Shown here one piece after another: positions 241 to 45,153 of a stretch of DNA of 64,000 bases. The position numbers and the translations under genes are program-made. Positions within the stretch are counted from its first letter, which is position 1, and every line of letters starts with the position of its first letter. Source of the stretch: Candidatus Microgenomates bacterium. GTDB lineage: Bacteria; Patescibacteriota; JACPGU01. The notes under the pieces are model-generated. The model did no database searches, had not been told where the DNA came from, and saw only the letters and a program-made list of their open reading frames with translations. The stretch is taken from contig JACPGU010000002.1 in assembly GCA_016188915.1 (NCBI GenBank), forward strand, positions 241,211-305,210, in the 5' to 3' direction.

Positions 241-1551
241 ATGGCAACAATTAAGAAAAAAACATCCGGTCTAAAAGTGAAAAAAACGGCAGGCATCAAG
301 AAGAAACAGCCCACTCGAGAATTGACTTTACCGGAAGATTATAATATCGGTCTTTTGCCTAGAATATCTTTGGCTTTTTTGGTAGTGATTTTATTGTCGG
401 TGACGCTCTATTATGTGGCGGTTGTCAGAAAAGAGAGCAGAATCAACGCGCCGGAAGAAAATACGATTGATGATTCTTTAGATAAAACTATCTTGCCGGA
501 TGATGAAGCGACAACGGCTGGACAGATTTTTTATTCTTTGGGAGACACATTGCTCTCTTACGATACGAGCAAAAGTGAGACAAAAAATTGGATTGGCAAA
601 GCTGATGATTGGCTGTTTCAGGAATCATCCGCGCCTACTTTGCTTTATCGTGATATTGCGGTGCTGGATGATAACAAAATAGGTTTTTCTTATTGTCAAA
701 AAGAAGGGGGAGAAAGACCTTGTGGTCTGTACACTTTTGATGTTAAGACTAAAAAAATAACTTTGGCTAAAGATCCGGGGCCAAATCTTACTATCGGTCA
801 AGCGGCTTGGTATTCGGCTGATAAATTAGCTTATTTTTTAGAAAATGATAAAGAAAACAAATCTAGTTTAATTTTGGCACGCGGAGGGGAATTGGCTACT
901 TTGGATGAAATTAATGGTCCTGCTTTAGGTCGTGGCGGGTTTGATGAAGATAGCGTCAAAATGGCTTTTTCTCCCGATGGGGTACATCTTTTGCAAATTG
1001 CCACCAATTCTCGCCGCGACGGAAGTGATTTCAATACTTATGTTTACGATACAATGACGGGTAAAAAAATAATCATCAACGGAGCTACTCAGCCAGAGTG
1101 GCTGAACAATGATACTATTGTCTATCGCAACCAAAGAGATGGAGGGGGAATTTATCAATTCAATATCAAAACATCAGCTTGGGAAAGATACAATGCAATA
1201 AAAATGGACGCATATAACCCACAAATTCTGGCAGGTAGTGATGAAATTTATTATGAAAAAGAAAGCGATAGAAGTGTTTGGTCGTATAATATAAAAAACG
1301 GCGACCATCAAAAAATAGCCGACAAAGCCTCTTCTTGGCGTTTTGTCTCTCCGGCGACAGCGATATATTTGACTTTGATAAAATGCGCCACTGATGGAGA
1401 AAAAAAACCAGCAGGAGCCTGCGATTTTTCTCCCGATGATTATTATCCAGACAAAGCGGTAGTTTTTGATTTGCGTTCATCGGAAGAAAGAGAAAAAATA
1501 AAAGAAAAAATATTTCCTCTCTCAAGCCATCAGTGGTTTACTGGTTTTTAA
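241..1551 (+). CDS. membrane-anchored PD40/TolB-like beta-propeller repeat protein (hypothetical)
   Basis: The 436-aa ORF has a Lys-rich N-terminus followed by one TM helix (LAFLVVILLSVTLYYVAVV). It carries repeated FSPDG / YS.D-type motifs typical of PD40/WD40-like propellers. It is followed by a strong terminator hairpin. Confidence 0.5.
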   Translation: MATIKKKTSGLKVKKTAGIKKKQPTRELTLPEDYNIGLLPRISLAFLVVILLSVTLYYVAVVRKESRINAPEENTIDDSLDKTILPDDEATTAGQIFYSLGDTLLSYDTSKSETKNWIGKADDWLFQESSAPTLLYRDIAVLDDNKIGFSYCQKEGGERPCGLYTFDVKTKKITLAKDPGPNLTIGQAAWYSADKLAYFLENDKENKSSLILARGGELATLDEINGPALGRGGFDEDSVKMAFSPDGVHLLQIATNSRRDGSDFNTYVYDTMTGKKIIINGATQPEWLNNDTIVYRNQRDGGGIYQFNIKTSAWERYNAIKMDAYNPQILAGSDEIYYEKESDRSVWSYNIKNGDHQKIADKASSWRFVSPATAIYLTLIKCATDGEKKPAGACDFSPDDYYPDKAVVFDLRSSEEREKIKEKIFPLSSHQWFTGF

Positions 1552-6530: not shown

Positions 6531-6551
6531 GACCGCTGTAGCGGTTTTTTT
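6531..6551 (+). terminator. terminator hairpin (ACCGCTgtAGCGGT + T7) immediately upstream of the tRNA
   Basis: A short stem is followed by a 7-nt T-run. Confidence 0.55.
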
Positions 6552-6623
6552 GCGCTCGTCGTTCAACGGATAGGACGCAGGCTTGCGGAGCCTGTAATAG
6601 AAGTTCGATTCTTCTCGAGCGCA
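6552..6623 (+). tRNA. tRNA-Arg with anticodon GCG (72 nt, no encoded CCA)
   Basis: The manual cloverleaf has acceptor GCGCTCG/CGAGCGC and D-stem GTTC/GGAC with loop AACGGATA. The anticodon stem CAGGC/GCCTG encloses loop TTGCGGA. The T-arm is AGAAG-TTCGATT-CTTCT and the discriminator is A. Confidence 0.6.
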
Positions 6624-6713
6624 TTGCATATTCCCAGCGTCGAATGTTAGGGATGTAGTTTTTGCTAGCGTAGTTATGTTTATAAAAAAAGCCTTGTAAG
6701 AGGGGTTTTTTAT

Positions 6714-15892: not shown

Positions 15893-18800
15893 ATGGTGAA
15901 AAAACATTCACCAAAGGGCAAAAAAGCGCGGATCGGCGACGCTTTGTTCACTTTGAGAAAAAGAGGCAAAAGCCCCTGGTTTTTTGCTGTTTTTTTAATT
16001 GTTTTATTTTTAATAGGACAATTAACGAGCAAAGCCTATGCAGCCAATTTTTATCCCAATCTTTGTTTTGGTACTGCCGATAGCAAAAAAGCGGTCGGGC
16101 AGATTAAAAATAGCGCGTCTGATCAGACCCCTTCAGAATTTGCAGTAACAATAGACGAAGAGAACGTGACATTGGATTGCGCGCAATTTCGTGATGAGGG
16201 AAAATCCAGCAGAGTGCGCAAGGTGCAGGAAGCAACGCTAAAGATTTTTTGGAGTACGAATACAGATAGTATTGGCGAAGGGGCAAAAGCGAGTTTTTGG
16301 CAAACAAAGAAAGCTTTGGCGGCCGATGAAGAGACTACGACAGAAATTGTTAGCGAGAAAATAACAGAAGAGATAATTGCTCCGGAACAAATAGAAAACG
16401 TAATTTCTGGCCAGACAATAGGAACAACAGAGCCGATAGAAGATACAGTTTCCGATCAAGACGCGCAAATAAATAAGGCAACTATCGCTATTTCTTATAC
16501 TTTGGATAATGCCATTTGGCAAGATTTGGCAAATGTTGGGATAAATAATCTTGCGACAGAATTTCCTCTAAATCTCAAAGATTCAAGCGATATCGCCAAT
16601 TTCCATTTGCGTGTCACTTCAATCGGAGATTTTGGTCAAAATTTGGTTTTGTTAGACGGTTTTGCCATTAGCGCTGTATTCCAAAACGATTTTAGCGATG
16701 AAGAAATAGAGGCTTTACCTAGGGTAGATATTGGCGAAGAACTTTTTGTCGCGCCCAAAAAAGATTTCCGGGCAGATGAAGCAGTGGAATTTGAAATCAA
16801 AGGCTTTCAAGATGCGGGCACTTCGCAAAACCCAACTGCTTCTCTATCTGAAGCCCGAAGTATTAGTATTGCAAATCTTAAATCTCCCGCCCACCTTGTT
16901 GCGCAAGGTGTTGTGGGCAGGCAAATCTCAAATCTTCAATATATTTTCCCAGCTCATGCTGAAGAAATCACGGCTGGCGCAGTGCAGGTTTTGACCGCTG
17001 AAGTTTATGATCCTATTGGCAACACTGGAACGATAACACCTTTGGTGCAAGAAATAGGAGGAACGACCAAGATCATTGTCAACAAGCCCACTCGTGGATT
17101 CCGTCCCGGCAGGTATCGCTTGCATCTGGAAGTTTTGGATTTGGCTTCCAGCCAAATTCTTATTTCCGATCAAAATTTTACTTGGGGAGTTTTGGCTATC
17201 AACCTTAACAAATCGGTATATTTGCCCTTTGAAAGTGCTTATTTGCAAATGGGAGTGCTAGACGATCAAGGTTCTACCATCTGCAATGCTAATTTAAAAT
17301 TGGAAATAACAGATCCTTTGGGTGGGTTTACGATTTTGACGACCGCTTCTGGGTCGATTTCTTTAAGTGATCAATGTGATAAAAATAATGTGACGGACAC
17401 ACCCGATTATTTCGCTTATTATACAACCGGGGATCTCGGTGTCTATCAAATGACGCTGACCAATCTTACCAATCTTTATTCCGTTACAGACACTTTTGAG
17501 GTCAGAAACTATGCGCCGATGACGATAGAAAGAATCTCGGCCACGCGCATCAATCCCTTTAAGGCCAATTATCGAATGATTTTTGAATTGCGTGCCAACG
17601 AGGCTTTCTCCGGTGCTTTTTCTGAAACTCTGCCGGATAATTTTGAAGTAATTGATCCGACTATTAATAATGATACGGCTTACGATTTACTAATAACTTC
17701 CGGCGACAAAAAAATTATTTCTTGGAATCTCAGTCTCAATCGCAACCAGAGAAAAACCATTACCTATACTTACGATTCACCTGATGTTTCTCCTCAGCTT
17801 TACTTGGCAGGACCAGCTTCGGCGGGTACGATTTTTACCGAAACCAGAAATTGGCAGATCGCATCCGACGCTGCTTGCTCTTCTAACGGTACGGGCAATT
17901 GGAGTAATGGCGCCACATGGTCAGGATGTACGGGAACGGGAGGCGTGCCGGCGGCAGATGATACTATCACCATAACTGACGGTCATGCGGTAACATTGGA
18001 CACCACGGCCACCGTCGCGGGGCTTACTCTCTGCGACTCGGCGTGCAATGCCGATACTTCTTTGACCCATAGCGGGAGCAATGCCCTGACAGTCAATGGC
18101 ACGGTGACCATCAATGGTGGCGCCGGCGCCGGCGACAACACGCTCTGGACTATCAACGGTGGTTCGGCCACCGTTTCGGGAGCAATATCGTATAATCCGC
18201 AGTCTACGACTGGTGGTCGCGATGCCAAAATAGCACTATCCACCGGTACGCTCAACGCCAACGGAGGAATCGTCTTTGAGAATACCGCCGGCTCGGAAGA
18301 CAACCAAATGCTGGCGATGACCAGCACCGCGACTGTCAATCTCAAAGGGAGTATCAGCAATCAAACTCTTGCCGATATTCAGCCGGGGACGACGAGTACC
18401 TTTGTCTATATTGATAGCGCGGCGGCGCAGACGGTTGTCTTTGACGCGACCAGTTCCACCTACGCCAAGCTGACTTTCAGCAACACGCACGCTAGTGGCG
18501 TAACGCTTGGCGCGGCGCTTACCGCTACCAATACAACGGGGGACGTCAATGTCCTGCACGGAATATTTGTAACGGGCGGTTACAATATGACTGGTACCGG
18601 TTCCAATACGCTAACTATGAGCAACGGCTCGCAATTTGATCAGACGGGTGCTACTCTCATCAGCAGTTTCGCCGGTCTTTCCACTAGCGCGACGAGCACC
18701 TACCGACTTTTGACCACCAACGCCACTTTTTCCATGGCGACTTTGATCTATGGCAATGTGGTTGTTTCGCCGCAGGCCAACAATGTGGCGGTGACGCCCA

Positions 18801-21800
18801 GTTCCGGCACGCTGTCTATGCAGGGGTATCTGACGTTGGGAGGAGTGGGCGCCTATACCGGTATCACTTTAAATATTGACACTTCCGATCCGACCTTCAA
18901 TGTAGATGGCGATACGACGATAGGCGCCAACCATACATTGATCTTGAGCGCGACGGGGACAGCTACTTTCGGAGGAAGCTGGACGAATGCTGGCACCCTA
19001 ACCCACTCCTCCGGCACAGTCACTTTTGACGCGACCGACACGGGCAATACTATCAACAACAATTCTTCATCTTTTTACAATCTCAAGCTCAATGGCTCGG
19101 GCGGAGAATGGTCGGCGCTGACCAATACCTTGACTATCGCCAATGACCTCACAGTATCGGCCGGTACGCTTAATAATAGCGCTGGTACAGCCGACATTAC
19201 GGTTAACGGCAATGTGGCTTGTAATGGTACTTGCGGCACTGTCAATCTCACTTCCGGCACTTTCCTGCAAAGTGTGACGACCAACAAAGCTTTCGGCACC
19301 AATGTGGCGGTTGGCACTAATTGGATTTTTAACAATCTCACTTTCACCGGCACTTCGGATACTATCACCACCAGCTCTACCGGCACCGGCACTATTGAGG
19401 TCAAAACCAATTTGACGATTTCAACGGCTACCACTTTGGACGCGGGCAACCGCACCTTCATCCTTTCCGCGGCCTCCACCACTCCCGCCACTTTCACCGG
19501 CACTTTGACGGGTAATACTTCCATCTTTCGCTACACCGGCGCGGGCAACACCACTATTCCGGCCAGCACCGGGTACAGTACGGTTCAGCTCTATCCGGGC
19601 GCTAATTCCGCCATCTTCACTCTCGATTCTGGCACATTCACTCTGTCGGGAGATTTCATCGCGGGCGGAAATTCTTCTTACACCGGCACCACTGTTACGC
19701 TCGGCGCGAACAATCCAACGATGAATATCACGGGCGACTTTACCGTTTGCGCCTCTTCTTGTCCTGAAATGACTTTCACCAAATCATCTAACACTATTAC
19801 TCTAAACGGCACAGCCAATACCAAGACTATCACTGACAACAACACGACCAAGCAAGACCTTGGGAAAATCGCTATCGGCAACGCCTCGGCTGCCAAAATC
19901 GTCAATATGGGCTCTACTTTGAAATTGGAGACGCTCAATATCACTGCCAACGCCACTTTTTCTTTCAACAACGGAGCCTACACTTTGACTATTACCGGTA
20001 CCGGCACGCCATTAACCAAAACCGGTACCTTTACGGCGACCACTGGCACGACGACCTATGTTGGTAATGGCGCGACAACTATTACGGCGGCCACTTACAA
20101 CAATTTACAGATTTTTCCCGGTGGCGCCTCCGTTACTCACACCTTGGCTTCCGGCACTTTCACTATCGGTGGCGATTTGGATATCGGCGGGAATGCCAAT
20201 GGCGCTTCCACTGTCGTTACCGCTGGCGCGAACAACCCGACCATTGGTTTGACGGGCAATCTTGTGGTCTGCGCGTCCACTTGTTCCAACCAGATGACTT
20301 TCACCAAATCTTCCAATACTTTAACGTTGAATGGCACGGCCAATACCAAGACCATCACCGACAACAATACCACCAAGCAAGACCTCGGGGCTTTGGCTAT
20401 CGGCAATGGCGCAACGGCCAAACATATCGGGCTTGGCTCCAATATCAAGGCCACTTCCGTCAATATTACCGCTTCCGCTTTTTTTGAGCCGGGCGCCTAT
20501 ACGGCGACTTTGACAGCCAACGGCACGCCTTTTACCGTCTCCGGCACTTTCACGCCCGCCACTTCTACCATCGAATACGCCCCCGCTTCCACGACCGGTG
20601 TTACGGTAGCCTCCACCACCTATCATCATGTTATTTTCAATAAAACCTCCAACACTTTTTCACTGACCACATCCGGCATTACTACCGATACCGCTAATGG
20701 CGGTGGAGATTTGACTATTTCTGCCGGAACACTAGACACTGTTTCCGGCTCTAATTACCCGATTTCTATTGGGGGTTCTTGGACTAATAGCGACACCTTT
20801 ACCGCCAATTCTGGCACTGTTACCTTCACCTCGGTTAATACTGGAGAAACGCTTTCCGGCACATTGTCCGGCGCTTCTAGTTTCAATAACATAATTTTTA
20901 ATGGTTCAGGCGGAGAATGGACGCCAGGTTCAGCTGTTAATTTGAATGGCGATTTGACCATGACGGCCGGCACTCTGCTCGGCACGCAAAATATTACCGT
21001 CGCTGGCGGAGACGTGACTGGTGATGGCGCTATCACTCTTACCGGCGGGACATTCAAAGTGACGGGCGCTTCCGGCACGGGTTTTGGCGGGGCGACAGCT
21101 TGGAGTTTTTCCTCCCTTACTTTTGGCGATGGTGCTGATAGCGCGACGACGACCGCTACCGGCTCCGGTGGGATAACGGTTTCTTCTGTTCTGACCATTG
21201 ATGCCACTCATACTTTGGACGCGGCTGGTAAGATATGGACACTTTCCGGAACAACTGACCCCTTTGTTAAAACGGGAACTTTTACTCCTAATACTTCTAC
21301 TTTTAAATTTACCGGCAATGGCGCGACCAATATCCCCGCCACCACTTATTACAATTTGCAAGTTTTTCCCGGCGGAGCAGTCACCCATACCTTGGGCGCG
21401 GGAACTTTCACCATCAATAATAATCTGGATCTAGGCGGTAACACCAACCCGGCTTCAACAGTAATCACGGCGGCGACCAATTCTCCGACGGTGAACATTA
21501 CAGGTAATTTGACGCTTTGCGCCACTACTTGTTCCAATCAGATGACCTTCACCAAGGGCGGAACAATTACTTTGTCTGGCGCGGCTAATACCAAGAGCCT
21601 GACTGACAACAACACGACCAAGCAAGATCTGGGCGATATCACTATCGGCAACGCCTCCTTGGCCAAAATCATTCAGCTTGGTTCGTCGATCAAGGCGACC
21701 TCCATCAATATTACGACCAATGCAACGCTTGACGCTAACGGGACGAACACTATTACTTTGACCGGTACAACTACTCCTTTCACTACTAACGGCGCTTTTA

Positions 21801-23233
21801 CTTATTCCACCAGTACCGTGGTTTTCACCGGCAACGCATCTTTTACCATTCCGGCAACCACTTATTATAATTTAACTTTTAGTCCGACCGTGGTGACGAC
21901 CGGCAAGACCTATACTTTTGGCGGAGCAGTGGCGGTCAATAGCGCCTTGGATATCAATCCGGACGCGGCTACCAGTCTTTCTTTGACGGTCAATCTCGGT
22001 GGCGCGCTCACCGGCTCGCCGGCTGTCACCGTTAGAAGGCAAAATTCGGCGGCTTCCGTTTTGGATACTACGGCCGGCAATTATGGTATTACGGCTACCA
22101 GTTTTGACATCCAAGCAGGCGGGACAGTGACACTTAACGCTTCTACTGTTTCGGCTTCCGGCGCGGTGACCATTGCTTCATCGGGGACGTTAAATGCCAC
22201 TTCTGGCACTTTCAGTATTGGTGGCAATTACACGAATAATGGCACTTTTTCTAGCAACAACGGCACCGTTACCATCAACGGCTCTTCGCAGCAGACTTTG
22301 GCCGGAACGATGACAACGACCAACGCTTTCAAGACTCTGACAATTACCAATAGTAGTGGCGCCGATCCCGATGCTTCGCCTTCGGTAATTTTTTCGGCCG
22401 CGGCGACCGCCACCACTTTCAACGCGGTGACGGCCTCAACCAAAATTCGCTTCTTGGCGGGCGCGACCTATACTTTTACCACTTTCAATGTCAATGGCCA
22501 GGCGACCGGTACGCGCGTTCAGCTCCGTTCCTCTTCCTCGCCGACCGCTTGGTTGCTTGTCGCTAGTGGCAGTCCGGTGGTTTATAATACCAATCCCAAA
22601 GATTCCAATGCTTCCGGCGGGAGCAGCATTGATGCTTCAGCCGCATCCAATTTGGACGGTGCGGGCAATACCAATTGGAATTTTGGAGGACTTTCTACTG
22701 ATATTGTAGACAGTAATGGCGATCCAGTGGGTAGTCCAGCGGTAGCTATGGATAACGCTTCTTTAGGTTTTGCTTGCCAGTCTGCTACTGGTACCTTGGG
22801 GGCGGCTTCGCAGAAAATGCGTGTTTCCAATAGCACGGGCAATCCTTCATGGACCCTAACTATCGCGCCGACTGATGGGGCCACTACGACTTGGACGGCT
22901 GGCGCGCCCTTGTATGATTTTAACGACGCGACAGCTTCTGGCTGTTCGGATGGGATAGACGCTGATGGAGTGGGTGGACAGCTAACGATGAACGCTTCGG
23001 CAGGGACGGTGACGCCACAGGGCGGTTGTTCTTCTACGGGAATTACAAAAGGTAATTCAGCTGCTTTTGTGCAGGGCACTACTGACAGCGTCACCATTTT
23101 GTCGGCTAGCGGTCTGGCGGAAACTAGTTGTTATTGGGATTTGACAGGCGTTTCTTTGAGTCAATCAATTCCGCAAGAGCAAACTATCGGCAATTACTCT
23201 TTGAATATGACGATTACTTTGACTGCGAATTAA
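15893..23233 (+). CDS. giant (2446 aa) secreted Thr/Gly/Asn-rich tandem-repeat surface protein with a WxL-like C-terminal domain
   Basis: The protein has an N-terminal signal anchor. A beta-helix-like low-complexity region carries about four ~180-aa tandem repeats (NNPT.N.TG...CAS.C..MTFTKSSNT.TLNGTANTKTITDNNTTKQDLG). The C-terminal ~190 aa are homologous to the 238-aa protein at 11921..12637. Confidence 0.8.
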   Translation: MVKKHSPKGKKARIGDALFTLRKRGKSPWFFAVFLIVLFLIGQLTSKAYAANFYPNLCFGTADSKKAVGQIKNSASDQTPSEFAVTIDEENVTLDCAQFRDEGKSSRVRKVQEATLKIFWSTNTDSIGEGAKASFWQTKKALAADEETTTEIVSEKITEEIIAPEQIENVISGQTIGTTEPIEDTVSDQDAQINKATIAISYTLDNAIWQDLANVGINNLATEFPLNLKDSSDIANFHLRVTSIGDFGQNLVLLDGFAISAVFQNDFSDEEIEALPRVDIGEELFVAPKKDFRADEAVEFEIKGFQDAGTSQNPTASLSEARSISIANLKSPAHLVAQGVVGRQISNLQYIFPAHAEEITAGAVQVLTAEVYDPIGNTGTITPLVQEIGGTTKIIVNKPTRGFRPGRYRLHLEVLDLASSQILISDQNFTWGVLAINLNKSVYLPFESAYLQMGVLDDQGSTICNANLKLEITDPLGGFTILTTASGSISLSDQCDKNNVTDTPDYFAYYTTGDLGVYQMTLTNLTNLYSVTDTFEVRNYAPMTIERISATRINPFKANYRMIFELRANEAFSGAFSETLPDNFEVIDPTINNDTAYDLLITSGDKKIISWNLSLNRNQRKTITYTYDSPDVSPQLYLAGPASAGTIFTETRNWQIASDAACSSNGTGNWSNGATWSGCTGTGGVPAADDTITITDGHAVTLDTTATVAGLTLCDSACNADTSLTHSGSNALTVNGTVTINGGAGAGDNTLWTINGGSATVSGAISYNPQSTTGGRDAKIALSTGTLNANGGIVFENTAGSEDNQMLAMTSTATVNLKGSISNQTLADIQPGTTSTFVYIDSAAAQTVVFDATSSTYAKLTFSNTHASGVTLGAALTATNTTGDVNVLHGIFVTGGYNMTGTGSNTLTMSNGSQFDQTGATLISSFAGLSTSATSTYRLLTTNATFSMATLIYGNVVVSPQANNVAVTPSSGTLSMQGYLTLGGVGAYTGITLNIDTSDPTFNVDGDTTIGANHTLILSATGTATFGGSWTNAGTLTHSSGTVTFDATDTGNTINNNSSSFYNLKLNGSGGEWSALTNTLTIANDLTVSAGTLNNSAGTADITVNGNVACNGTCGTVNLTSGTFLQSVTTNKAFGTNVAVGTNWIFNNLTFTGTSDTITTSSTGTGTIEVKTNLTISTATTLDAGNRTFILSAASTTPATFTGTLTGNTSIFRYTGAGNTTIPASTGYSTVQLYPGANSAIFTLDSGTFTLSGDFIAGGNSSYTGTTVTLGANNPTMNITGDFTVCASSCPEMTFTKSSNTITLNGTANTKTITDNNTTKQDLGKIAIGNASAAKIVNMGSTLKLETLNITANATFSFNNGAYTLTITGTGTPLTKTGTFTATTGTTTYVGNGATTITAATYNNLQIFPGGASVTHTLASGTFTIGGDLDIGGNANGASTVVTAGANNPTIGLTGNLVVCASTCSNQMTFTKSSNTLTLNGTANTKTITDNNTTKQDLGALAIGNGATAKHIGLGSNIKATSVNITASAFFEPGAYTATLTANGTPFTVSGTFTPATSTIEYAPASTTGVTVASTTYHHVIFNKTSNTFSLTTSGITTDTANGGGDLTISAGTLDTVSGSNYPISIGGSWTNSDTFTANSGTVTFTSVNTGETLSGTLSGASSFNNIIFNGSGGEWTPGSAVNLNGDLTMTAGTLLGTQNITVAGGDVTGDGAITLTGGTFKVTGASGTGFGGATAWSFSSLTFGDGADSATTTATGSGGITVSSVLTIDATHTLDAAGKIWTLSGTTDPFVKTGTFTPNTSTFKFTGNGATNIPATTYYNLQVFPGGAVTHTLGAGTFTINNNLDLGGNTNPASTVITAATNSPTVNITGNLTLCATTCSNQMTFTKGGTITLSGAANTKSLTDNNTTKQDLGDITIGNASLAKIIQLGSSIKATSINITTNATLDANGTNTITLTGTTTPFTTNGAFTYSTSTVVFTGNASFTIPATTYYNLTFSPTVVTTGKTYTFGGAVAVNSALDINPDAATSLSLTVNLGGALTGSPAVTVRRQNSAASVLDTTAGNYGITATSFDIQAGGTVTLNASTVSASGAVTIASSGTLNATSGTFSIGGNYTNNGTFSSNNGTVTINGSSQQTLAGTMTTTNAFKTLTITNSSGADPDASPSVIFSAAATATTFNAVTASTKIRFLAGATYTFTTFNVNGQATGTRVQLRSSSSPTAWLLVASGSPVVYNTNPKDSNASGGSSIDASAASNLDGAGNTNWNFGGLSTDIVDSNGDPVGSPAVAMDNASLGFACQSATGTLGAASQKMRVSNSTGNPSWTLTIAPTDGATTTWTAGAPLYDFNDATASGCSDGIDADGVGGQLTMNASAGTVTPQGGCSSTGITKGNSAAFVQGTTDSVTILSASGLAETSCYWDLTGVSLSQSIPQEQTIGNYSLNMTITLTAN
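19690..21700 (+). repeat. in-frame tandem coding repeats (~540-bp period, about four copies) inside the giant gene
   Basis: A recurring DNA block containing accaagcaagacct occurs at ~19850, ~20390 and ~21625. The protein-level repeats are listed above. Confidence 0.7.
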
Positions 23234-23302
23234 TGATTTACCTATTGTTGCTGTGAGGACTGATGTTATAATAAAAACAAGTTTTATAATTAATTTTGTT
23301 CT

Positions 23303-23446
23303 ATGCCAAAAAACAAAAACAAAAAAAGCCAAAAAGGAGATTTTTGCGTGGGCGATTGTTGTTTTCGGAAAGTATATTGGGCGACTTTGGCCGTTTTGGT
23401 TTTACAGATAGCAATTCTCTTGGTTTTCATTTGGAAGTTTATATGA
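23303..23446 (+). CDS. 47-aa ORF (MPKNKNKKSQKGDFCVGDCCFRKVYWATLAVLVLQIAILLVFIWKFI) duplicating the signal-anchor region of the downstream giant gene
   Basis: Its TM segment and DNA (ttttacagatagc..) are paralogous to codons ~25-45 of the 23462..27748 gene (FLIVVLVLQIAVLAILV). It lies 16 nt upstream of that gene. It is not on the ORF track because it is under 60 aa. Confidence 0.3.
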   Translation: MPKNKNKKSQKGDFCVGDCCFRKVYWATLAVLVLQIAILLVFIWKFI

Positions 23447-23461
23447 AATAACTTCTAGCAA

Positions 23462-26400
23462 ATGAAATGGATAAAAAACAAAAAAAGCTATCTTTCCCCC
23501 CTTTCTTTTTTCAAAGAAAAAAGCAATCAAATTTATTCTTTTTTGATTGTTGTTTTAGTTTTACAGATAGCTGTTCTTGCTATTTTGGTGCCATTAGTGC
23601 GGGGAGTAAATTCTACTACTCACACCAGCCAAGAAGATTTTGCGGCAGGCGCTATCTCTCAAACAGCAGTGACTAATAGCTCTGGCGGTGAGATTTCTTT
23701 GGCTACTGTTTCTTCCAGTTTTGCCCAACAATCTTTCGGCACTAACTCTCTCGGCGAAGTAGGAGTCAAGGTCAATGATTTATACGCCGCCTATAGCCCC
23801 AGTCTAGTCCACGATTCCTTAGGCAATACCTACGTTGCCTACTTTTTCGCCGGTTCAACTTGGGATATTGTAGTCAAAAAATATGATTCTGCCGGAGCGC
23901 AAGATTTGACTTTTGGCACAGCTGGCACTTTGACTATTTCATCTTCTGCTGTTGCCGGCGGGATTATGCCCAATACACCATCTTTGGTAGTGGACAATAC
24001 CAACAGTAATCTCTATGTCGCCTGGGATGCCGGAGCGCCTCTCGCCAGCGCTAAAACTATTTATGCCAAAAAGTTTTCTTTTGCTGGTGTTATTGACACG
24101 AGTTTTGGCACGAGCGGGCTTTTGACTGCCGGTAGTAATAACAAATCTATCAGCACGGATCATAGTTTTTCTATTAGTATTGATACCAATAGCAAACTCT
24201 ACATTGCCACGAATGGTACGAGCGGGACGAGCCTCACAGTCAAAAGATACACTACGGCCGGAGCCCTGGATGCTAGCTACGCGACATCCGGAACATTAAC
24301 AGCCGTTTCTACCGGCAACGCGGTCGGTGACCCATATATGGTAGTTAATGGTGGCGACAATCTTTATCTCCTTTACTACGAAAATATTTCCGGTCCGCAC
24401 AAAATCTACGCCAGGAAATTCAATTCTTCGGGAGTAACGGTGACCAGCTTTGGCGCCAGTGGAATCTTGGAGATCGCTTCTTCCACGCAGGCATTGCGAG
24501 ATCCCGTGGTAGTTTTCGGTGGTTCAGAGAACGGCTATGTCGTTTGGACGGAAGCGGCCAACAATGATATTTACGCCAAGAAATTTTCCACGGCCGGAGT
24601 TTTAGACACGAGTTTTGGCACGAGTGGTATGGCAACAATAACTACAGCTAGTAATATTCAGAGGAAACCGGCGCTGGCCCTAGATTCCAGTGAAAATATG
24701 TATATCGCCTGGGAAGATAATCGCGGAGCGGATTACAGCATTTATACTAAAAAATTCAATTCCTCTGGCACGTTGGTTTCCGGCTTTGGAACGGCGGGAG
24801 AATTAGCCACTTTCGATAATAGCAACAATCAATTTTATCCGGCGATTATGACTGATGCCACCGGTGATATTTATCTTGCTGCTTCTGATGATCGCTCTAC
24901 CGGCAATACCAAATATGATTTGTATATAAGAAAATTCAATTCCTCCGGTACGCGATATAACGATTATTCACCGGCCACAGCAGATGATGTGGCGATCAGC
25001 GGTGAATCTTCTAGCCAAGAACATCCTGCTTCCGCTACCGATTCTGACAACAATGTTTATTTCGTTTGGCGCAATATGGCAACGGACGCCAACGGCGATA
25101 TTTATATGAAAAAATACAGCGCCATGGGCTTTCTCTACGACGGTACATCCGCTTCTCCGGAATTTGGCACCGACGGGCAGGTCTTGATTTCCTCTGCCGG
25201 GACGAACGCTGCCCAGCGCGCGCCACGGATAACGCTAGATAGCACTGATAATATTTATGTCTCTTGGTATGACAATCGTGATGGGGCAAATTACGACGCT
25301 TACGTGAAAAAATTTAGCAGTAGTGGCGCGCTAGACGCAACTTTTGGCTCATCAGGAGAGTTAACGGTGGAGGCAGGGATTTTAATCGGCGCGGGCGAAT
25401 CCGATGAACTACCGACAGAAATGGGGCTGGGGGTGGATTCCTCTGACAATATCTATGTTGCTTATTACAAAGATTTGGCTCTGGATGGCGCTGATTACGC
25501 GGTCTATATCAGGAAATACTCTTCGGCCGGCGTTATCGTTTCGGCCTTTGGCAGTTCCGGCACTTTGACGGTAGCAAGTAGCAGCCTAGCCGATACCTTT
25601 CCCACGCTGACTATTTCTTCCGCTAATAATCTTTATGTCGGTTATGTGGAATGGGAGCTGGACTTCTCTGACTCTAAAGTGAAGATTAAAAAATATAATT
25701 CTTCCGGGACGATAGATAGCGCTTTTGGTACGAGCGGGACCATCACTTACGATAATGTTGGCGATATTGATCGCGAGGCGAGGCTGGCTTTGGATTCTAC
25801 CGGAGCCGTTTATCTGGCTTCGGGCAATGTAGATGATCTCATCGCGCCTACTGCCTACCAAATATTCCTGACCAAATATGATTCAGCTGGCGTTATCGTT
25901 ACGAGCTTTGGTACCGGTGGCACGATCACTTTGGCGACTTCAGCCAATGCGACCATCTATCCTTCTATCGCCACAGATTCGGCAGACAATATCTATGCTA
26001 CTTGGACGCAAACGGTAGCCGATAATGATATCAAGCTTCGCGTTTACAATACTGCCGGAACGCTCAATACTAATGTTGGCACTAACGGAGTTTTGGTTTT
26101 GGACTCTACAACGGCCAATGCCAATCAGGTAGCTATAACCGTTGGAGCAGGAGACGCTATCTATTTTGCTTGGTCGGACGGGGCGATATCTGGCGCCAAA
26201 TATGATTTCACTGGCGGTTCGACTGTCTATTATACTTCTGGTACTTTTGAATCGGCCACGATTGATACTGGCTCTAGCACGCAAGTTTACGGCAATTTGT
26301 CTTGGTCGGTAACGACGCCAGTCGGCACATCGGTTTTGTTCCAGGTGGCTACGGCCACCACTGATAGCGGCTATGTCTATCGCGGACCGGGTGGATTTTT

Positions 26401-27748
26401 GGACACCTACTACACCACTTCCTCTGGTCATAATATTTGGTCAGGGGCGGACAGCCAGAGATATTTCCGCTACAAAATGATTTTGGCCACGACCGATGCT
26501 ACGGCCAGTCCTAGTGTAGCCAGTGTTACTATCGCTTATAACCTGCCACCAAACGCCCCTTCTTCTTTAGGGCCGATGGCTTCTATCGACGGAACGGCTT
26601 CTTCTAACACCAGACCTAACTTCTCTTTTACCTTGACCGACAATGATACATCCGACACGGTTGGCTATCGTATTCAAATTAGCCAAGTGAGCGACTTTTC
26701 TTCCAGTATCGTTGACTATACTTCGGCTATGGCCACTCAGGGGACAGCTTCTTTTTCAGTTGGACAGGCTACAGGTAGTGGTAGCTATACGACGGGGTGG
26801 CTTAATCAGACTTTGTCTGAAGGAAATTATTATTGGCGCGTCGCTGCTATTGACGAAAACAATCTTATCGGTAATTGGACGACAGCCAATTCAGGCAATG
26901 TTGCTTTGACAATTTCTTTGCCACCATCCTATACGGCACCTATCGAATCAACCGGCGGAGGTGGCGGGGTAGAACCCAAGGCCGCCACGCCAGAGAAAAA
27001 GGCCACAGAGACCTTTACCGATAATTTTTCCATAAATATTAATGACGATCAGATCAATACAACTAATCTGGAAGTTACTTTGCGTTTTAGTGCTCCTTCT
27101 TCTGCTACGGAAGTGGAGATTTCTAATTATCCTGACTTCAAAGAATCTACTCGCGATCAATTCGCTAGAGAGAAAAAATGGTCTATCTGTGCCGACAAAG
27201 ATACAGGCGCGGTCGGAAAAGCCAACATCAAAACCCACAATTGTTCAGAGGGCGAGTACAGCGTCTATGCTAGATTTTATAATGCCAAAGGAGAAATGTC
27301 GGCAGTTTTCAGAGACACCATCTCTTATCGTCTGAATACGAAAGATATAACTGAGGGGGCAAATCAAGCTATCCCAGAGAAAGGTGGCACGCCACAAAAT
27401 ATTAGTGAGACAATTAGCCCCAACGATAATACTGGTAGTCAAACAGAGATTTTGCCGGCGCTGGTTTTTGTTCCCGACATCATCTTTTTCAACAATATGC
27501 GAGTGGGTTCCAATGGGGTGGAAGTCAAGGCTTTGCAGGAATTTTTGAATAAAAACGGTTTTACGGTAGCTGATAATGGTCCTGGTTCTTCCGGCGGTGA
27601 AACGCAGTATTACGGCGCGTTGACTGCCCGGGCAGTGGCTAGATTTCAAGAAGCCAATGCTGATCAGATTTTGACTCCCTTGGGCTACACCAAGGGTACG
27701 GGTATCTTTGGTCCCGCGACGAGAAATTATATTAATTCACTGAAATGA
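23462..27748 (+). CDS. giant (1428 aa) secreted protein with ~15 delta-60-like repeats, Ig/FN3-like modules and a C-terminal peptidoglycan-binding (PG_binding_1-like) domain
   Basis: Repeated units of ~45-60 aa (IYAKKF.S.G.LDTSFGTSG.LT...) follow a signal anchor. The C-terminus VGSNGVEVKALQEFLNKNGF...YYGALTARAVARFQEAN resembles a PG-binding domain. Confidence 0.8.
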   Translation: MKWIKNKKSYLSPLSFFKEKSNQIYSFLIVVLVLQIAVLAILVPLVRGVNSTTHTSQEDFAAGAISQTAVTNSSGGEISLATVSSSFAQQSFGTNSLGEVGVKVNDLYAAYSPSLVHDSLGNTYVAYFFAGSTWDIVVKKYDSAGAQDLTFGTAGTLTISSSAVAGGIMPNTPSLVVDNTNSNLYVAWDAGAPLASAKTIYAKKFSFAGVIDTSFGTSGLLTAGSNNKSISTDHSFSISIDTNSKLYIATNGTSGTSLTVKRYTTAGALDASYATSGTLTAVSTGNAVGDPYMVVNGGDNLYLLYYENISGPHKIYARKFNSSGVTVTSFGASGILEIASSTQALRDPVVVFGGSENGYVVWTEAANNDIYAKKFSTAGVLDTSFGTSGMATITTASNIQRKPALALDSSENMYIAWEDNRGADYSIYTKKFNSSGTLVSGFGTAGELATFDNSNNQFYPAIMTDATGDIYLAASDDRSTGNTKYDLYIRKFNSSGTRYNDYSPATADDVAISGESSSQEHPASATDSDNNVYFVWRNMATDANGDIYMKKYSAMGFLYDGTSASPEFGTDGQVLISSAGTNAAQRAPRITLDSTDNIYVSWYDNRDGANYDAYVKKFSSSGALDATFGSSGELTVEAGILIGAGESDELPTEMGLGVDSSDNIYVAYYKDLALDGADYAVYIRKYSSAGVIVSAFGSSGTLTVASSSLADTFPTLTISSANNLYVGYVEWELDFSDSKVKIKKYNSSGTIDSAFGTSGTITYDNVGDIDREARLALDSTGAVYLASGNVDDLIAPTAYQIFLTKYDSAGVIVTSFGTGGTITLATSANATIYPSIATDSADNIYATWTQTVADNDIKLRVYNTAGTLNTNVGTNGVLVLDSTTANANQVAITVGAGDAIYFAWSDGAISGAKYDFTGGSTVYYTSGTFESATIDTGSSTQVYGNLSWSVTTPVGTSVLFQVATATTDSGYVYRGPGGFLDTYYTTSSGHNIWSGADSQRYFRYKMILATTDATASPSVASVTIAYNLPPNAPSSLGPMASIDGTASSNTRPNFSFTLTDNDTSDTVGYRIQISQVSDFSSSIVDYTSAMATQGTASFSVGQATGSGSYTTGWLNQTLSEGNYYWRVAAIDENNLIGNWTTANSGNVALTISLPPSYTAPIESTGGGGGVEPKAATPEKKATETFTDNFSININDDQINTTNLEVTLRFSAPSSATEVEISNYPDFKESTRDQFAREKKWSICADKDTGAVGKANIKTHNCSEGEYSVYARFYNAKGEMSAVFRDTISYRLNTKDITEGANQAIPEKGGTPQNISETISPNDNTGSQTEILPALVFVPDIIFFNNMRVGSNGVEVKALQEFLNKNGFTVADNGPGSSGGETQYYGALTARAVARFQEANADQILTPLGYTKGTGIFGPATRNYINSLK

Positions 27749-27789
27749 AATTCGTAGAGGCGTTGCAATGCAACGTCTCTACGAATTTC
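27747..27789. terminator. long near-perfect hairpin (AAATTCGTAGAGgCGTTGCAatGCAACGtCTCTACGAATTT) between the giant gene stop and the tRNA-Pro 3' end
   Basis: The hairpin is ~19 bp. On the minus strand it is followed by a T-rich stretch. Confidence 0.6.
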
Positions 27790-27791
27790 AA

Positions 27792-27864
27792 TCGGGATAG
27801 GCAGACTTGAACTGCCGACCTCCACGTCCCGAACGTGGCGCGCTACCAACTGCGCTATACCCCG
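27792..27864 (-). tRNA. tRNA-Pro with anticodon CGG (73 nt, no encoded CCA)
   Basis: The minus-strand sequence is CGGGGTA-TA-GCGC-AGTTGGTA-GCGC-G-CCACG-TTCGGGA-CGTGG-AGGTC-GGCAG-TTCAAGT-CTGCC-TATCCCG-A. The acceptor has one G-U pair. Confidence 0.85.
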
Positions 27865-27867
27865 ACT

Positions 27868-27960
27868 CAAGCTCTGGCGGGCAGGCGAATCGTGTGCCTT
27901 AGCCAATTAGGCCAGTCGCCGACACAAGCTTTGGCGGGTGGCGCGCTACCAGTGCTACTT
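27868..27960. repeat. tRNA-Pro 5'-fragment duplication plus a 20-nt direct repeat (CAAGCTyTGGCGGGyrGGCG) upstream of tRNA-Pro
   Basis: The copy at 27868-27887 directly abuts the tRNA 5' end. The copy at 27925-27945 is fused to GGCGCGCTACCAGTGCTAC, whose reverse complement GTAGCACTGGTAGCGCGCC resembles the tRNA-Pro D-arm TAGCGCAGTTGGTAGCGCGCC. Confidence 0.5.
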
Positions 27961-28038
27961 ACCGAAATCGGATATCGGTAAATAGTATTTTATCAAAAAA
28001 GACAGACGAAACAAAAAGTTTAAGTTTTCTTCTTGAGA

Positions 28039-28067
28039 TTTGACATTTTTTTGAGGAAGAGTAAAAT
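28039..28067 (+). promoter_or_regulatory. near-consensus sigma70 promoter TTGACA-17-TAAAAT
   Basis: TTGACA is at 28039-28044 and TAAAAT at 28062-28067. Confidence 0.5.
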
Positions 28068-28074
28068 AGTGGCT

Positions 28075-28204
28075 ACCTATGAAAAACAGCAATATCAAAA
28101 ATCTCATTTCTGTCATTTTGCTACCATCGCTGGACGGTGATTTTGCTGTTGGCATATAGAAAAGATTCCAACAACGAAACCACCGCCCAGGCGGTGGTTT
28201 TTTA
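28075..28204 (+). ncRNA. candidate ~130-nt promoter-to-terminator transcript (sRNA or leader) containing a 26-codon sORF
   Basis: The predicted TSS is at ~28075. The sORF at 28079-28159 encodes MKNSNIKNLISVILLPSLDGDFAVGI and has no SD. The terminator AAACCACCGCCcagGCGGTGGTTT+TTTT lies at 28177-28204. Confidence 0.3.
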
Positions 28205-28230
28205 AATACCTTAAAAATCGGAGGCAGAAT

Positions 28231-28939
28231 ATGGAAACGATTAGCGACCATTTCCCTTTTTGTAGTCTTGACGAAGCGGTTGACGTTCAGAAAAAAAAGA
28301 CGGTTTGATACTGGCCTTTTTAAGGCCGTAGAAAAATTTGTCGGAGAACTGCCTGATTTTTTGCAAAAAGATTTTGATTGGAAAAAACCGACGACGGCTA
28401 TTGTCACGCCCCTGGCCAGTTGGCGAGAAGTAGATCAGATTTTTCTTGATCGATCTGCCAGAGTAGGCGCGCGCGCGATTTGGCTGGAATTTTCCAAGGA
28501 TCTTTTTAGTCCCACTAATTGTTGGAAAAAAGAATTCATTTTGGTTCGCAATAACGGCCAGACAAGAACTTTGGTTAACCCCGAGAGATTTGCTGGTCAA
28601 CCCTTTGCCTGGGTCGTGGTCGATGATGGTGACTATCTGATTGATTGCCATCATCAATTGCGTCACAGATTGACGGAAGGTACAGATGGTCGAACGCCGT
28701 ATTTTGACATCTCTCCCTGGCTTTGCCAAAAAAGAAATGGTCAAAAGCTCGGCCATATCACACCCCTTCTGGCTTTGGCGGTCATGCATTTCATTTTAGT
28801 TTTGTATGACCATACCCCTTCTCTACTAGCCAAAAAAATCCAGCCGGCCAGTCTTTTGATAGAACAAAGATTGGGCGTTAGGCCGTTGATTGTTGATCTC
28901 GGCGTTTCACATTCTTCGGCCAGGATTTTGCTCCAGTAA
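28231..28939 (+). pseudogene. hypothetical protein gene interrupted by a +1 frameshift in an A8 homopolymer (28291-28298)
   Basis: An ATG at 28231 has a strong RBS (aatcGGAGGcagaatATG) and encodes METISDHFPFCSLDEAVDVQKKK, stopping at 28306. Deleting one A joins it in frame to the 223-aa ORF, whose only upstream start is a TTG at 28268. Confidence 0.45.
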
Positions 28940-28992
28940 TTTTTTTAGGCTAAGATAGATGGTCACCCCTTCTCTCTTGGCTTGTTTCAAAA

Positions 28993-32138: not shown

Positions 32139-32171
32139 ACTTCTTGCGAAGGTGTCACCTTCGCAAGAAGT
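32139..32171. terminator. second copy of the 14-bp-stem palindromic terminator (ACTTCTTGCGAAGGtgtcaCCTTCGCAAGAAGT) downstream of the HIT gene
   Basis: The 25-bp core CTTGCGAAGGTGTCACCTTCGCAAG is identical to the one at 1575-1599. Confidence 0.7.
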
Positions 32172-43052: not shown

Positions 43053-43116
43053 CCGTTTGTAGAAATATTTTGGTATAAATACCAAAATATTTCTACAAAC
43101 GGAGAAGGAGGGATTC
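43053..43116. repeat. perfect 24-bp-arm palindrome fused to an 18-nt duplicate of the tRNA-Ser(GCT) 3' end (att-like scar)
   Basis: The palindrome is CCGTTTGTAGAAATATTTTGGTATaaATACCAAAATATTTCTACAAACGG. The segment ACGGAGAAGGAGGGATTC at 43099-43116 is identical to 43299-43316, which spans the tRNA T-loop to its 3' end. The two copies are exactly 200 bp apart. Confidence 0.6.
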
Positions 43117-43260
43117 CTCTTCGCTCCGACCCGCCTAGACTCGGCGAGGCTGGCTCGAATTCGGGGCGCTACACACAATGAAAAGTTGCGCTCGCTCGCT
43201 TTCCACCTGCCTGCCGGCAGGCAGGCTCGCGCCCTTCGAATCCCCGCCATATCTTGATTG

Positions 43261-43296: not shown

Positions 43297-43299
43297 CAA

Positions 43300-43390
43300 C
43301 GGAGAAGGAGGGATTCGAACCCTCGATACGGGTTTTCACCCGTATAACGGTTTAGCAAACCGCCGCCTTCAGCCACTCGGCCACCTCTCC
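43300..43390 (-). tRNA. tRNA-Ser with anticodon GCT (type II, 91 nt)
   Basis: The minus-strand sequence is GGAGAGG-TG-GCC-GAGTGGCTGAA-GGC-G-GCGGT-TTGCTAA-ACCGT-(long variable arm)-GAGGG-TTCGAAT-CCCTC-CTTCTCC-G. Confidence 0.85.
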
Positions 43391-43552
43391 ATATTTTTGA
43401 TTTAAACATCACGATAGACTGAAACATCTTTTCTGCTCTAGGCGGCATATCAACCTTTGGTTGATTACGCCTTTCCCGCCACAACTATCATAAAATATTA
43501 TAGTAGGCGGGACCCCTGCCTCGCCGGCAGGCAGGCCGCCTTTGGCGGTGGC

Positions 43553-43573
43553 AGCCACTCGGCCACCTCTCCT
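43553..43573. repeat. 21-nt duplicate of the tRNA-Ser(GCT) 5' end, ~165 bp upstream of the gene
   Basis: The plus-strand CAGCCACTCGGCCACCTCTCC is the reverse complement of GGAGAGGTGGCCGAGTGGCTG, i.e. tRNA positions 1-21. It is adjacent to the GC palindrome CCTGCCTCGCCGGCAGGCAGG at 43516-43536, which pairs with CCTGCCTGCCGGCAGGCAGG at 43207-43226. Confidence 0.6.
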
Positions 43574-43676
43574 GGTCTAATTTTGCTCCAAATCTTTGAT
43601 TTTCTTGTCCATCTTAGCACAATTAAGAAATTGAGTTAATATGGAGATTCCGATATAATCATGTGGTAAATCAAAT

Positions 43677-43763
43677 GGAGAGCTGCCAGAGTGGTCGAAT
43701 GGGCCGCACTCGAAATGCGGTAAGGGCGTAAGCCTTTCAGAGGTTCGAATCCTCTGCTCTCCG
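43677..43763 (+). tRNA. tRNA-Ser with anticodon CGA (type II, 87 nt)
   Basis: The sequence is GGAGAGC-TG-GCC-AGAGTGGTCGAATG-GGC-CGCAC-TCGAAAT-GTGCG.. The anticodon stem CCGCA/TGCGG encloses loop CTCGAAA. The T-arm is AGAGG-TTCGAAT-CCTCT, the acceptor 3' strand is GCTCTCC and the discriminator is G. Confidence 0.85.
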
Positions 43764-43836
43764 TTTGCCCTAAACAATAGAGCGGCAAACCTAAAAGACC
43801 TATACTTTCATAGCTTCAAACTTATTATCATAAGGA

Positions 43837-44697: not shown

Positions 44698-44732
44698 ATT
44701 TTTTGTTGCATTAATTGGACTTAATTTCATCT

Positions 44733-44983
44733 GCATGGTGGAGGGGGAGACCCGCCTGCTGGCGAGGCAGGGATTCGCCCAGTTATTCGACTGGGCACCA
44801 GATCGAATAATCTGGCAAACTCATTTACTGCCTTAAACGGAGAGAGTGGGATTCGAACCCACGAACCACTTGCGTGGTTAACAGTTTTCAAGACTGTCGC
44901 CTTCAACCACTCGGCCATCTCTCCGCTTCTCTGCGGTGGCAAGACAATTGCACTAAACTACTATGCGACCCCTCCACCATGCA
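44733..44983. repeat. 15-bp inverted repeat (TGCATGGTGGAGGGG / CCCCTCCACCATGCA) bracketing tRNA-Ser(TGA) and ~160 bp of GC-rich hairpins
   Basis: The arms are at 44733-44747 and 44969-44983. Internal hairpins include CCCAGTtattcgaCTGGG and CCAGATcgaataATCTGG. Confidence 0.55.
44838..44924 (-). tRNA. tRNA-Ser with anticodon TGA (type II, 87 nt)
   Basis: The minus-strand sequence is GGAGAGA-TG-GCC-GAGTGGTTGAA-GGC-G-ACAGT-CTTGAAA-ACTGT-(variable arm)-GTGGG-TTCGAAT-CCCAC-TCTCTCC-G. Confidence 0.85.
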
Positions 44984-45153
44984 GATTTTCCCTTAAGCTA
45001 TGCTATCATACTATAAAATTTGACTGATTTCAACTGAGTAGATATACAGATATTTTTACTATATTTAGCCAAAATGTTAAATAAAGAATTTGACCAGAAG
45101 AGCTTTTTGTGCTAAATTTAAAAAATCATAACAACATTTAATATATTATTTCT

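Follow-up and report, generated by a model that had tools for sequence, protein, structure and literature searches.

Tyrosine-integrase islands and prophages reportedly leave displaced tRNA fragments (attL/attR) behind, a point credited to Williams in 2002. Displaced partial tRNA copies are by now established marks of integration (Islander, PMC4383910; bioRxiv 10.1101/2022.07.05.498093; PMC3293823). In archaea, tRNA fragments have been attributed to mobile elements in Caldiarchaeum, where the fragment is a tRNA-Thr 5' piece (PMC3293823), and in Thermococcaceae (bioRxiv 10.1101/2022.07.05.498093). In tRNA-dependent lysogeny, integration breaks the host tRNA gene and the incoming DNA supplies a complete tRNA of the same type (PMC10865867). 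Group I introns occupy position 35/36 of Patescibacteria tRNA genes (PMC13011429). Here we describe the segment upstream of a tRNA-Pro(CGG) gene in a 64,000-nt stretch (the window; contig JACPGU010000002.1, positions 241,211 to 305,210) of Candidatus Microgenomates bacterium, a member of the Candidate Phyla Radiation (CPR, Patescibacteria) whose genome has ~41% G+C. Dead tRNA 5' halves are stacked there, each followed by a short junction motif. We put the probability at about one in two that mobile DNA which targets tRNA genes and carries replacement halves left them as scars when it recombined in the anticodon loop.

The locus resembles Islander-type attachment (att) scars (PMC4383910) in that an intact tRNA gene has beside it a partial copy of its own tRNA type and orientation. 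As in integrase scars, breaks fall in the anticodon loop or T-loop, and the dead piece differs from the regenerated one. It is unlike them in that no island or integrase is present and only 15–200 nt, with no open reading frame (ORF), lie between the copies. Several dead halves are stacked, and one junction motif is common to different tRNA identities. Moreover, it is the 5' half that is displaced, upstream, at tRNA-Pro, tRNA-Ser(TGA), tRNA-Ser(GCT) and the tRNA-Arg of a relative (locus L087). The classical arrangement of gene, insert and displaced 3' part is seen at locus L019 and with a 3' fragment of tRNA-Ser(GCT); a displaced 3' part downstream of the gene was found only in these two and in L007, L010, L002 and L085. 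In the archaeal cases, as here, a tRNA 5' fragment lies upstream of an intact gene, and it has been ascribed to integration of or recombination with a mobile element. There, however, a 1.8-kb recombinase-encoding element separates fragment and gene, whereas here, in a bacterium, there is only the motif.

The live tRNA-Pro(CGG) gene (27792–27864, minus strand; ARAGORN, and Rfam RF00005 at 65.9 bits with its start at 27864) does not encode CCA. Two non-functional tRNA 5' halves precede it on the minus strand, from 27965 to 27865, and a C-rich junction motif comes after each of them. The distal half, frag1 (27938–27965, minus strand, TCGGTAAGTAGCACTGGTAGCGCGCCAC), is tRNA-Pro-like and truncated in the anticodon stem. 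It has an exact 14-mer in common with the live gene (expect value (E) 0.013); with two small gaps it aligns to tRNA-Pro over 28 nt, a score reached by none of 5000 shuffles. The end of frag1 overlaps the first 4 nt of junction motif M2 (27922–27941, minus strand), recognized by its sequence, CCACCCGCCAAAGCTTGTGT. A second half, U1 (27886–27921, minus strand, CGGCGACTGGCCTAATTGGCTAAGGCACACGATTCG), was placed by in-register alignment with the live gene, at a score reached by 52 of 5000 shuffles. Between U1 and the gene lies M1 (27865–27885, minus strand, CCTGCCCGCCAGAGCTTGAGT), identical to M2 at 16 of 20 positions. The first-pass annotation, made from the letters of the window, had noted a duplicated leader here. 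All the sequences it quoted are present on the minus strand: CGCCTGCCCGCCAGAGCTTG at 27889–27870, with its end 5 nt short of the tRNA-Pro start given by Rfam; a second copy, CGCGCCACCCGCCAAAGCTTG, 57 nt further upstream (27945–27925); and a D-arm-like fragment, GTAGCACTGGTAGCGCGCC, at 27958–27940. It overlooked that the sequence between the motif copies is itself a tRNA 5' half of 36 nt, the U1 described above.

U1 consists of an acceptor strand (CGGCGAC), an intact D-arm (GCCT-AATTGGCTA-AGGC) and an end, ...CACGATTCG, near anticodon position 35. Two base pairs distinguish its D-stem (GCCT/AGGC) from that of live tRNA-Pro (GCGC/GCGC), and in each pair both nucleotides differ. Bona fide tRNA-Arg and tRNA-Gln genes of the viral contigs L097 and L098 contain the 19-mer of its D-arm (TGGCCTAATTGGCTAAGGC) letter for letter. 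With a D-arm that is perfectly paired, doubly different and found verbatim in real tRNAs, U1 is a piece of a once functional gene and not a drifted copy of its neighbor.

Five tRNA genes were identified in the window by ARAGORN and Rfam, and a dead 5' piece followed by the motif is found at three of them, tRNA-Pro, tRNA-Ser(TGA) and tRNA-Ser(GCT). The live tRNA-Ser(TGA) gene (about 44837–44925, minus strand; ARAGORN and Rfam) is preceded by a tRNA-Ser(TGA)-like 5' half (44940–44975, minus strand, GGAGGGGTCGCATAGTAGTTTAGTGCAATTGTCTTG, GGAGGGG...GTCTTG), which also escaped the earlier annotation. This half is identical to the live 5' half at 24 of 36 positions without gaps (reached by 5 of 5000 shuffles), maintains D-stem pairing via a compensatory change and has its last nucleotide exactly at G35, in the TGA anticodon. 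Motif M4 (44925–44939, minus strand, CCACCGCAGAGAAGC) then abuts the 5' end of the gene, where GCCACCGCAGAGAAGC (44940–44925) had correctly been reported. The acceptor strand of the dead half, with its leader, pairs with 44746–44729, and the unit is therefore framed by an 18-bp perfect inverted repeat. The left arm (44729–44746, minus strand CCCCTCC-A-CCA-TGCAGAT) is a tRNA 3' end and pairs with that acceptor strand; the right arm (44969–44986) overlaps that strand, GGAGGGG. The resulting fold (z −7.3) encloses tRNA-Ser(TGA) and its trailer. The trailer (44759–44836, minus strand), 78 nt long and directly after the gene, comprises two adjacent 7-bp hairpins (first loop ATTCGA) and then a tRNA-3'-end-like tail, CGAATCCCTGCCTCGCCAG. 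It is ~80% identical, gaplessly, to its counterpart after a tRNA-Ser(CGA) in L007 (4965–5042, minus strand), and three stem changes between the two are compensatory; the trailer is thus shared despite different tRNA-Ser anticodons and distant genomes. A metagenome search for it returned no matches, and a covariance model found no further members in 30 loci.

At tRNA-Ser(GCT) (about 43299–43391, minus strand; ARAGORN and Rfam), the dead 5' fragment is shorter, comprising nt 1–21 (43552–43572, minus strand), and is 100% identical to the gene (blastn-short E 1e-6). It is followed by motif M3 (43536–43551, minus strand, CCACCGCCAAAGGCGG), which matches M2 at 12 of 13 positions with one gap; the first reading had quoted GCCACCGCCAAAGGCGGC (43552–43535) after this same 21-nt fragment, and it is there. 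A GC-rich palindrome, E2 (43515–43535, CCTGCCTCGCCGGCAGGCAGG), comes directly after M3. A dead 3' fragment (43098–43116, minus strand), 182 nt downstream of the gene, is identical to it over 19 nt, from the T-loop to the 3' end plus 2 nt (E 7e-5). A second GC-rich palindrome, the perfect E4 (43206–43225, CCTGCCTGCCGGCAGGCAGG), recurs as an identical 20-mer at L085 6049–6068; the two intergenic sites are non-homologous and the genomes have only ~71% protein identity. The nesting of a dead 5' piece, a whole gene and a dead 3' piece at tRNA-Ser(TGA) and tRNA-Ser(GCT) is reminiscent of tRNA-dependent lysogeny. Unlike in that system, the dead 5' and 3' pieces do not make up a whole gene, and no prophage is present. 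For tRNA-Ser(GCT), a split of this kind is ruled out, as nt 1–21 and nt 76–92 do not add up to one.

The same build was found in other genomes. In L086/L087, from a relative with a 67% identical AI-2E transporter, tRNA-Arg(GCG) stands behind two tandem tRNA 5' halves. The proximal one (unit 2) ends ...CAGCTTGCG (...TTGCG) and is linked to the live gene by CCTTCCCACCAAAACTT, which is identical to M1, its positional equivalent, at 13 of 17 positions. The D-stem of unit 2 (GCTC/GAGC) is perfectly paired and unlike that of the live gene, and the dead acceptor strands could still pair with the resident partner strand. L019, from a Saccharibacteria metagenome-assembled genome, is a mirror image. On its plus strand, the live tRNA-Thr(CGT) gene is followed by the reverse-complemented motif CATCGGCTCAGGCTTTGGCGGGCAGG and then by TAAAGTAGGAATGTGGGTTCGATTCCCACCTTCGGCTCA, a dead tRNA 3' half that starts at position 36 (T36). 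The T-arm of this half is perfect and of different sequence (T-stem GTGGG/CCCAC versus GCGAG/CTCGC in the live gene), and its acceptor strand still pairs with the live 5' strand, via one G-U pair. L019 (4961–5674, plus strand) and L347 (2501–3190, plus strand) also encode members of an IS200-like family of Y1 (HUH) transposases, very widespread in Patescibacteria and 60–80% conserved there. The family appears to be single-copy and of fixed context, with flanking hairpins of the type TCTAAGGACGTCAGACGTCCTTAGA that resemble those of transposases associated with repetitive extragenic palindromes (REP-associated tyrosine transposases, RAYT).

Simpler displaced copies are more widely distributed. 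Copies of the 3' end lie 59–202 nt downstream of tRNA-Ser(CGA) in L007, tRNA-Arg(CCG) in L010, tRNA-Leu(TAA) in L002 and tRNA-Ser(GCT) in L085. In L010 (~770–830, plus strand), an apparent 3'-end fragment of another tRNA (GGCGGAATCCCCACCCGCCCA) is found downstream of tRNA-Arg(CCG) and its 3'-end copy. In the metagenomic tRNA-Pro loci L104, L114, L121 and L196, which belong to another lineage, a copy of the 5' two-thirds of tRNA-Pro(CGG), with a different anticodon stem of its own, lies behind the promoter and 20–47 nt upstream of the live gene. L196 and L111 form an occupied and empty pair: promoter, dead 5' part and tRNA-Pro in the former, the same promoter and then directly the tRNA in the latter. 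The fetched loci contain 134 non-redundant tRNAs. Among these, every 5' fragment was upstream and every 3' fragment downstream of the gene, in the orientation of the gene, the sole exceptions being internal T-arm matches in viral tRNA arrays.

The junction motif was the feature that the first-pass annotation had placed beside several tRNAs, and this holds for its long form. The 9-nt core CCGCCARAG occurs 11 times in the window, eight of them in coding DNA; being this common in the genome, the core alone is not diagnostic. By contrast, the 17-nt consensus CCT[GT]CCC[AG]CCA[AG]A[AG]CTT, with at most two substitutions allowed, had five matches on the two strands of the fetched loci (2.02 Mb in all): in the window, L086, L087 and L019, and one that is probably due to chance. 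Four of the five are at tRNA junctions. M1 is identical at 18 of 20 positions to M6 of L019, which is reverse-complemented, and at 14 of 20 to M5 of L087. The motif is thus present in three CPR lineages and at four tRNA identities (Pro, Ser, Arg, Thr). Its position is always the break of the displaced half, be this 5' or 3', and its direction is away from that half. We considered whether the motif could be a tRNA 3' end (acceptor strand, discriminator and CCA); this was ruled out because the halves next to it have 5' strands to which it is not complementary.

The segment that contains the tRNA-Pro locus is lineage-specific. The nearest other relatives, whose AI-2E transporters are 66–71% identical, have no tRNA-Pro at this place; L082 has hicAB instead. 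A tblastx comparison over 27750–28990 found no homology to the locus in relatives. As these lack tRNA-Pro at the site, the upstream leader has no orthologue for a comparison of synteny. The neighbors of the tRNA-Ser genes were not kept either in relatives compared by way of galU.

Recombination directed at tRNA genes is the best-supported reading of these data, though an unproven one. In each event, the resident gene would recombine with incoming DNA within the anticodon stem-loop. The incoming DNA would carry the motif and a replacement 5' half (or a whole tRNA), and the old half would be displaced upstream and left attached to the motif. Repetition would produce the order on the minus strand, namely the degraded frag1, M2, the foreign-looking U1 stopping near position 35, M1 and the live tRNA-Pro(CGG). 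The target would be regenerated as by tRNA-targeting integrative elements, on the 5' side in addition to the classical 3' side. The agent would be an integrase or another site-specific enzyme; only ~20 nt of element-side sequence would survive, the body of the element having been lost. The dead halves are predicted to be transcribed as part of a ~125-nt 5' leader, starting from an AT-rich region near 27985–28015, and to be removed by RNase P.

The break points are consistent with this proposal. U1 ends ...TTCG (G35), the Ser(TGA) half ...CTTG (G35) and unit 2 of L087 ...TTGCG, while the L019 half begins at T36; the 3' fragments begin in the T-loop. Exceptions are frag1, which ends in the anticodon stem, and the 5' fragment of tRNA-Ser(GCT), which ends in the D-loop. 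The loops in which the others lie are classic targets of recombination. The dead halves came from working tRNA genes, since their stems are perfectly paired yet different from those of the live gene. The strict polarity, the breaks in loops, the well-formed, foreign-looking halves and the lineage-specific segment together fit recombination with incoming DNA carrying parts of tRNAs. A tRNA-directed mobile element was one of two explanations offered at first reading, and it fits better than the other, given a motif at half-tRNA breaks in three lineages and four identities; no element body or recombinase was found to go with it.

Several observations weigh against recombination of this kind. Pfam scans of neighboring genes revealed no integrase, transposase or other element gene in or beside these loci of the window. 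In at least five independent junctions, the insert between dead half and live gene is just 15–26 nt, a uniformity not expected if a large element had been deleted at random. What is displaced is in most cases the 5' part, upstream of the gene, whereas known integrative elements regenerate the 3' part. One conserved motif serves tRNA-Pro, tRNA-Ser, tRNA-Arg and tRNA-Thr, yet integrases are normally specific for a single tRNA. On IMG/VR viral contigs, the motif was either absent or represented by chance matches in coding DNA with no tRNA half nearby. Finally, a hybrid of U1 and the resident 3' half would not have worked, as the U1 acceptor strand (CGGCGAC) and today's 3' strand (TATCCCG) are unable to pair.

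An alternative is local partial tandem duplication, in which slippage or unequal crossing-over copied a native 17–21-nt leader together with tRNA nt 1–35 twice, after which the upstream copies decayed. The motif would then be the native leader. Duplicating motif plus half yields exactly the order half, motif, half, motif, gene, and no element genes are present. The period is exactly 57 nt, and the two units are identical in register at 34 of 57 positions, against a window-wide mean of 15.8 (standard deviation 3.8). At period 57, the value of the tRNA-Pro locus is the highest in the window; over periods 30–120, just three more loci attain 34/57. The identity is unevenly spread, however: the leader part is ~85% identical between the units and the tRNA part only ~46%, which even decay would not produce. 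In addition, both pairs at which the D-stem of U1 departs from the live one are fully compensatory, and the U1 stem is that of real tRNAs. The motif recurs at four tRNA identities in three genomes, with opposite polarity in L019, and independent duplications would have required identical end points every time. We therefore regard tandem duplication as unlikely.

The other explanation offered at first reading was a shared promoter or processing element. In its general form, the motif, with or without the halves as decoys, would be a signal for processing, stability or regulation of the pre-tRNA, acting for instance through RNase P or other nucleases. The motif is kept at 14–18 of 20 positions between distant CPR genomes and ends 0–4 nt from tRNA position +1 in four cases, and an 18-bp stem surrounds the tRNA-Ser(TGA) unit (fold z −7.3). 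These features would suit a functional leader. Such a signal should, however, be more general than it is. Neither dead 5' piece nor motif precedes tRNA-Arg(GCG) (6551–6624, plus strand), tRNA-Ser(CGA) (43676–43764, plus strand) or the transfer-messenger RNA (tmRNA) gene of the same genome, the last of which lies 7 kb upstream of the window within a 7.3-kb flank (L345). The motif was also found in none of 113 orthologous metagenomic tRNA-Pro(CGG) loci (central 33-mer shared, at least 100 nt upstream). In L019 it is downstream and antisense. The fold of leader plus tRNA-Pro is not unusually stable (z −1.7), and Rfam searches, at the gathering threshold for the window and at permissive E-values up to 10 for intergenic regions, returned only the tRNAs. 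The motif exceeds 65% G+C, and no sigma-70 promoter-like site was found on the minus strand in 27866–28040. The promoter or processing proposal is therefore not supported, and we consider any functional leader improbable.

Equally doubtful is the idea that the fragments are relics of interrupted genes. Here the motif would be the end of a small hairpin intron or insertion at 35/36, or the pairing sequence of split halves, and intron-less copies would later have taken over. The break at 35/36 coincides with the group I intron site enriched in Patescibacteria (PMC13011429; bioRxiv 10.1101/2025.07.03.662931), so phylum and position of the anticodon-loop interruption are the same. No ribozyme is detectable here, though: Rfam RF00028 has no match anywhere in the window, and nucleotide 35 is G or C and not the U required at a group I 5' splice site. 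Moreover, ~20 nt are followed by a whole tRNA gene and not, as in the known cases, by a 3' exon after an intron. A group I intron is accordingly ruled out. With the motif behind 5' halves in the window and its reverse complement ahead of a 3' half in L019, the arrangement is the one that Randau et al. reportedly described in 2005 for the split tRNA genes of Nanoarchaeum. The two forms that such an arrangement needs were seen only in different genomes (the window versus L019). E2, E4 and the L019 element further resemble hairpins of motif plus reverse-complemented motif. No matching 3' half lies within the 64-kb window, U1 is unable to pair with the neighboring 3' strand and, to our knowledge, no bacterial enzyme splices small hairpin introns.

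The least probable of the explanations invokes REP-like palindromes mobilized by a Y1 (HUH) transposase, a family with the GC-rich half-site CCTGCC[CT]GCC that would insert beside tRNAs and bring about rearrangements. It draws on the identity of the 20-nt palindrome at 43206–43225 with one in an AT-rich intergenic region of L085, on the distance of six of 10 half-site matches in low-GC loci (941 kb), no more than 300 nt from a tRNA, and on the IS200-like Y1_Tnp gene, of a family very widespread in Patescibacteria, directly upstream of the L019 locus. Against it, the half-site matches are few and not independent, the break points have no common target tetranucleotide, neither the window nor the other loci contain a Y1 gene, and the hairpins flanking that gene in L019 and L347 (TCT.AGGACGTC.GACGTCCT.AGA) differ from the motif, which weakens the RAYT link.

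A more far-reaching proposal, which we advance tentatively and think unlikely, is that Patescibacteria harbor an undescribed, tiny tRNA-directed recombination system. A ~20-nt unit (CCTGCCCGCCARAGCYTGAG) plus a tRNA half would be inserted at 35/36 in either orientation, swapping halves of several tRNA identities and leaving dead stacks. Failing that, a bacterial system of split tRNAs or small hairpin introns at 35/36 might have left the fragments behind.

The surroundings of the tRNA-Pro gene contain further features. A 39-nt palindrome (27749–27787; self-complementary match, 92% over 39 nt) lies directly 3' of both tRNA-Pro and a convergent 1428-aa gene and is probably a two-way terminator. 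That gene, which has a peptidoglycan-binding domain at its end, is the second of two giant genes (2446 aa and 1428 aa; 15893–27748, plus strand) with internal repeats, in a region whose G+C is raised to ~0.50. On the other side of the locus (28040–28205, plus strand), a 26-codon ORF (28079–28159) stands behind a strong sigma-70-like promoter (TTGACA, 16 nt, TAAAAT), and an intrinsic terminator (28182–28198 plus a T run) comes next, shortly before an orphan gene (28268–28939, plus strand). The arrangement resembles a leader peptide and attenuator or a small RNA gene; Rfam gave only a weak Phe_leader match (23.7 bits). The orphan product (219–223 aa) has only distant homologues (~30% identity; 32 matches in 1.84 billion representatives). 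It is unmatched in Pfam, and among the homologues only GNAT was found, in a separate part of one longer protein. We considered it as a recombinase, and nothing in the Pfam scans of the gene or its homologues points there. One public annotation (L081) calls ORFs on the opposite strand at this gene, which are probably spurious. Elsewhere in the window, a 33-nt palindrome (ACTWCTTGCGAAGGTGTCACCTTCGCAAGWAGT) occurs at 1571–1603 and 32139–32171, 30 kb apart and ~91% identical; both copies are intergenic and look like a repeated terminator-like hairpin. A period scan also revealed a short tandem repeat of period 33 (and 66) at ~59541–59600.

Partial tRNA copies were already known as marks of integration; new here are the stacked 5' halves, the tiny inserts and the motif common to different tRNA identities. 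The conserved junction motif provides a concrete search key for the responsible element, and the coincidence of the breaks with the Patescibacteria-specific 35/36 intron site is noteworthy. If recombination with mobile DNA is the correct reading, CPR tRNA genes would have been rewritten repeatedly in the anticodon loop. This would bear on the annotation of CPR tRNA sets, in which dead halves and nested genes confuse gene finders, and on how horizontal exchange reaches organisms with few known mobile elements. It would also bear on the long-standing question of the origin of split and interrupted tRNA genes.

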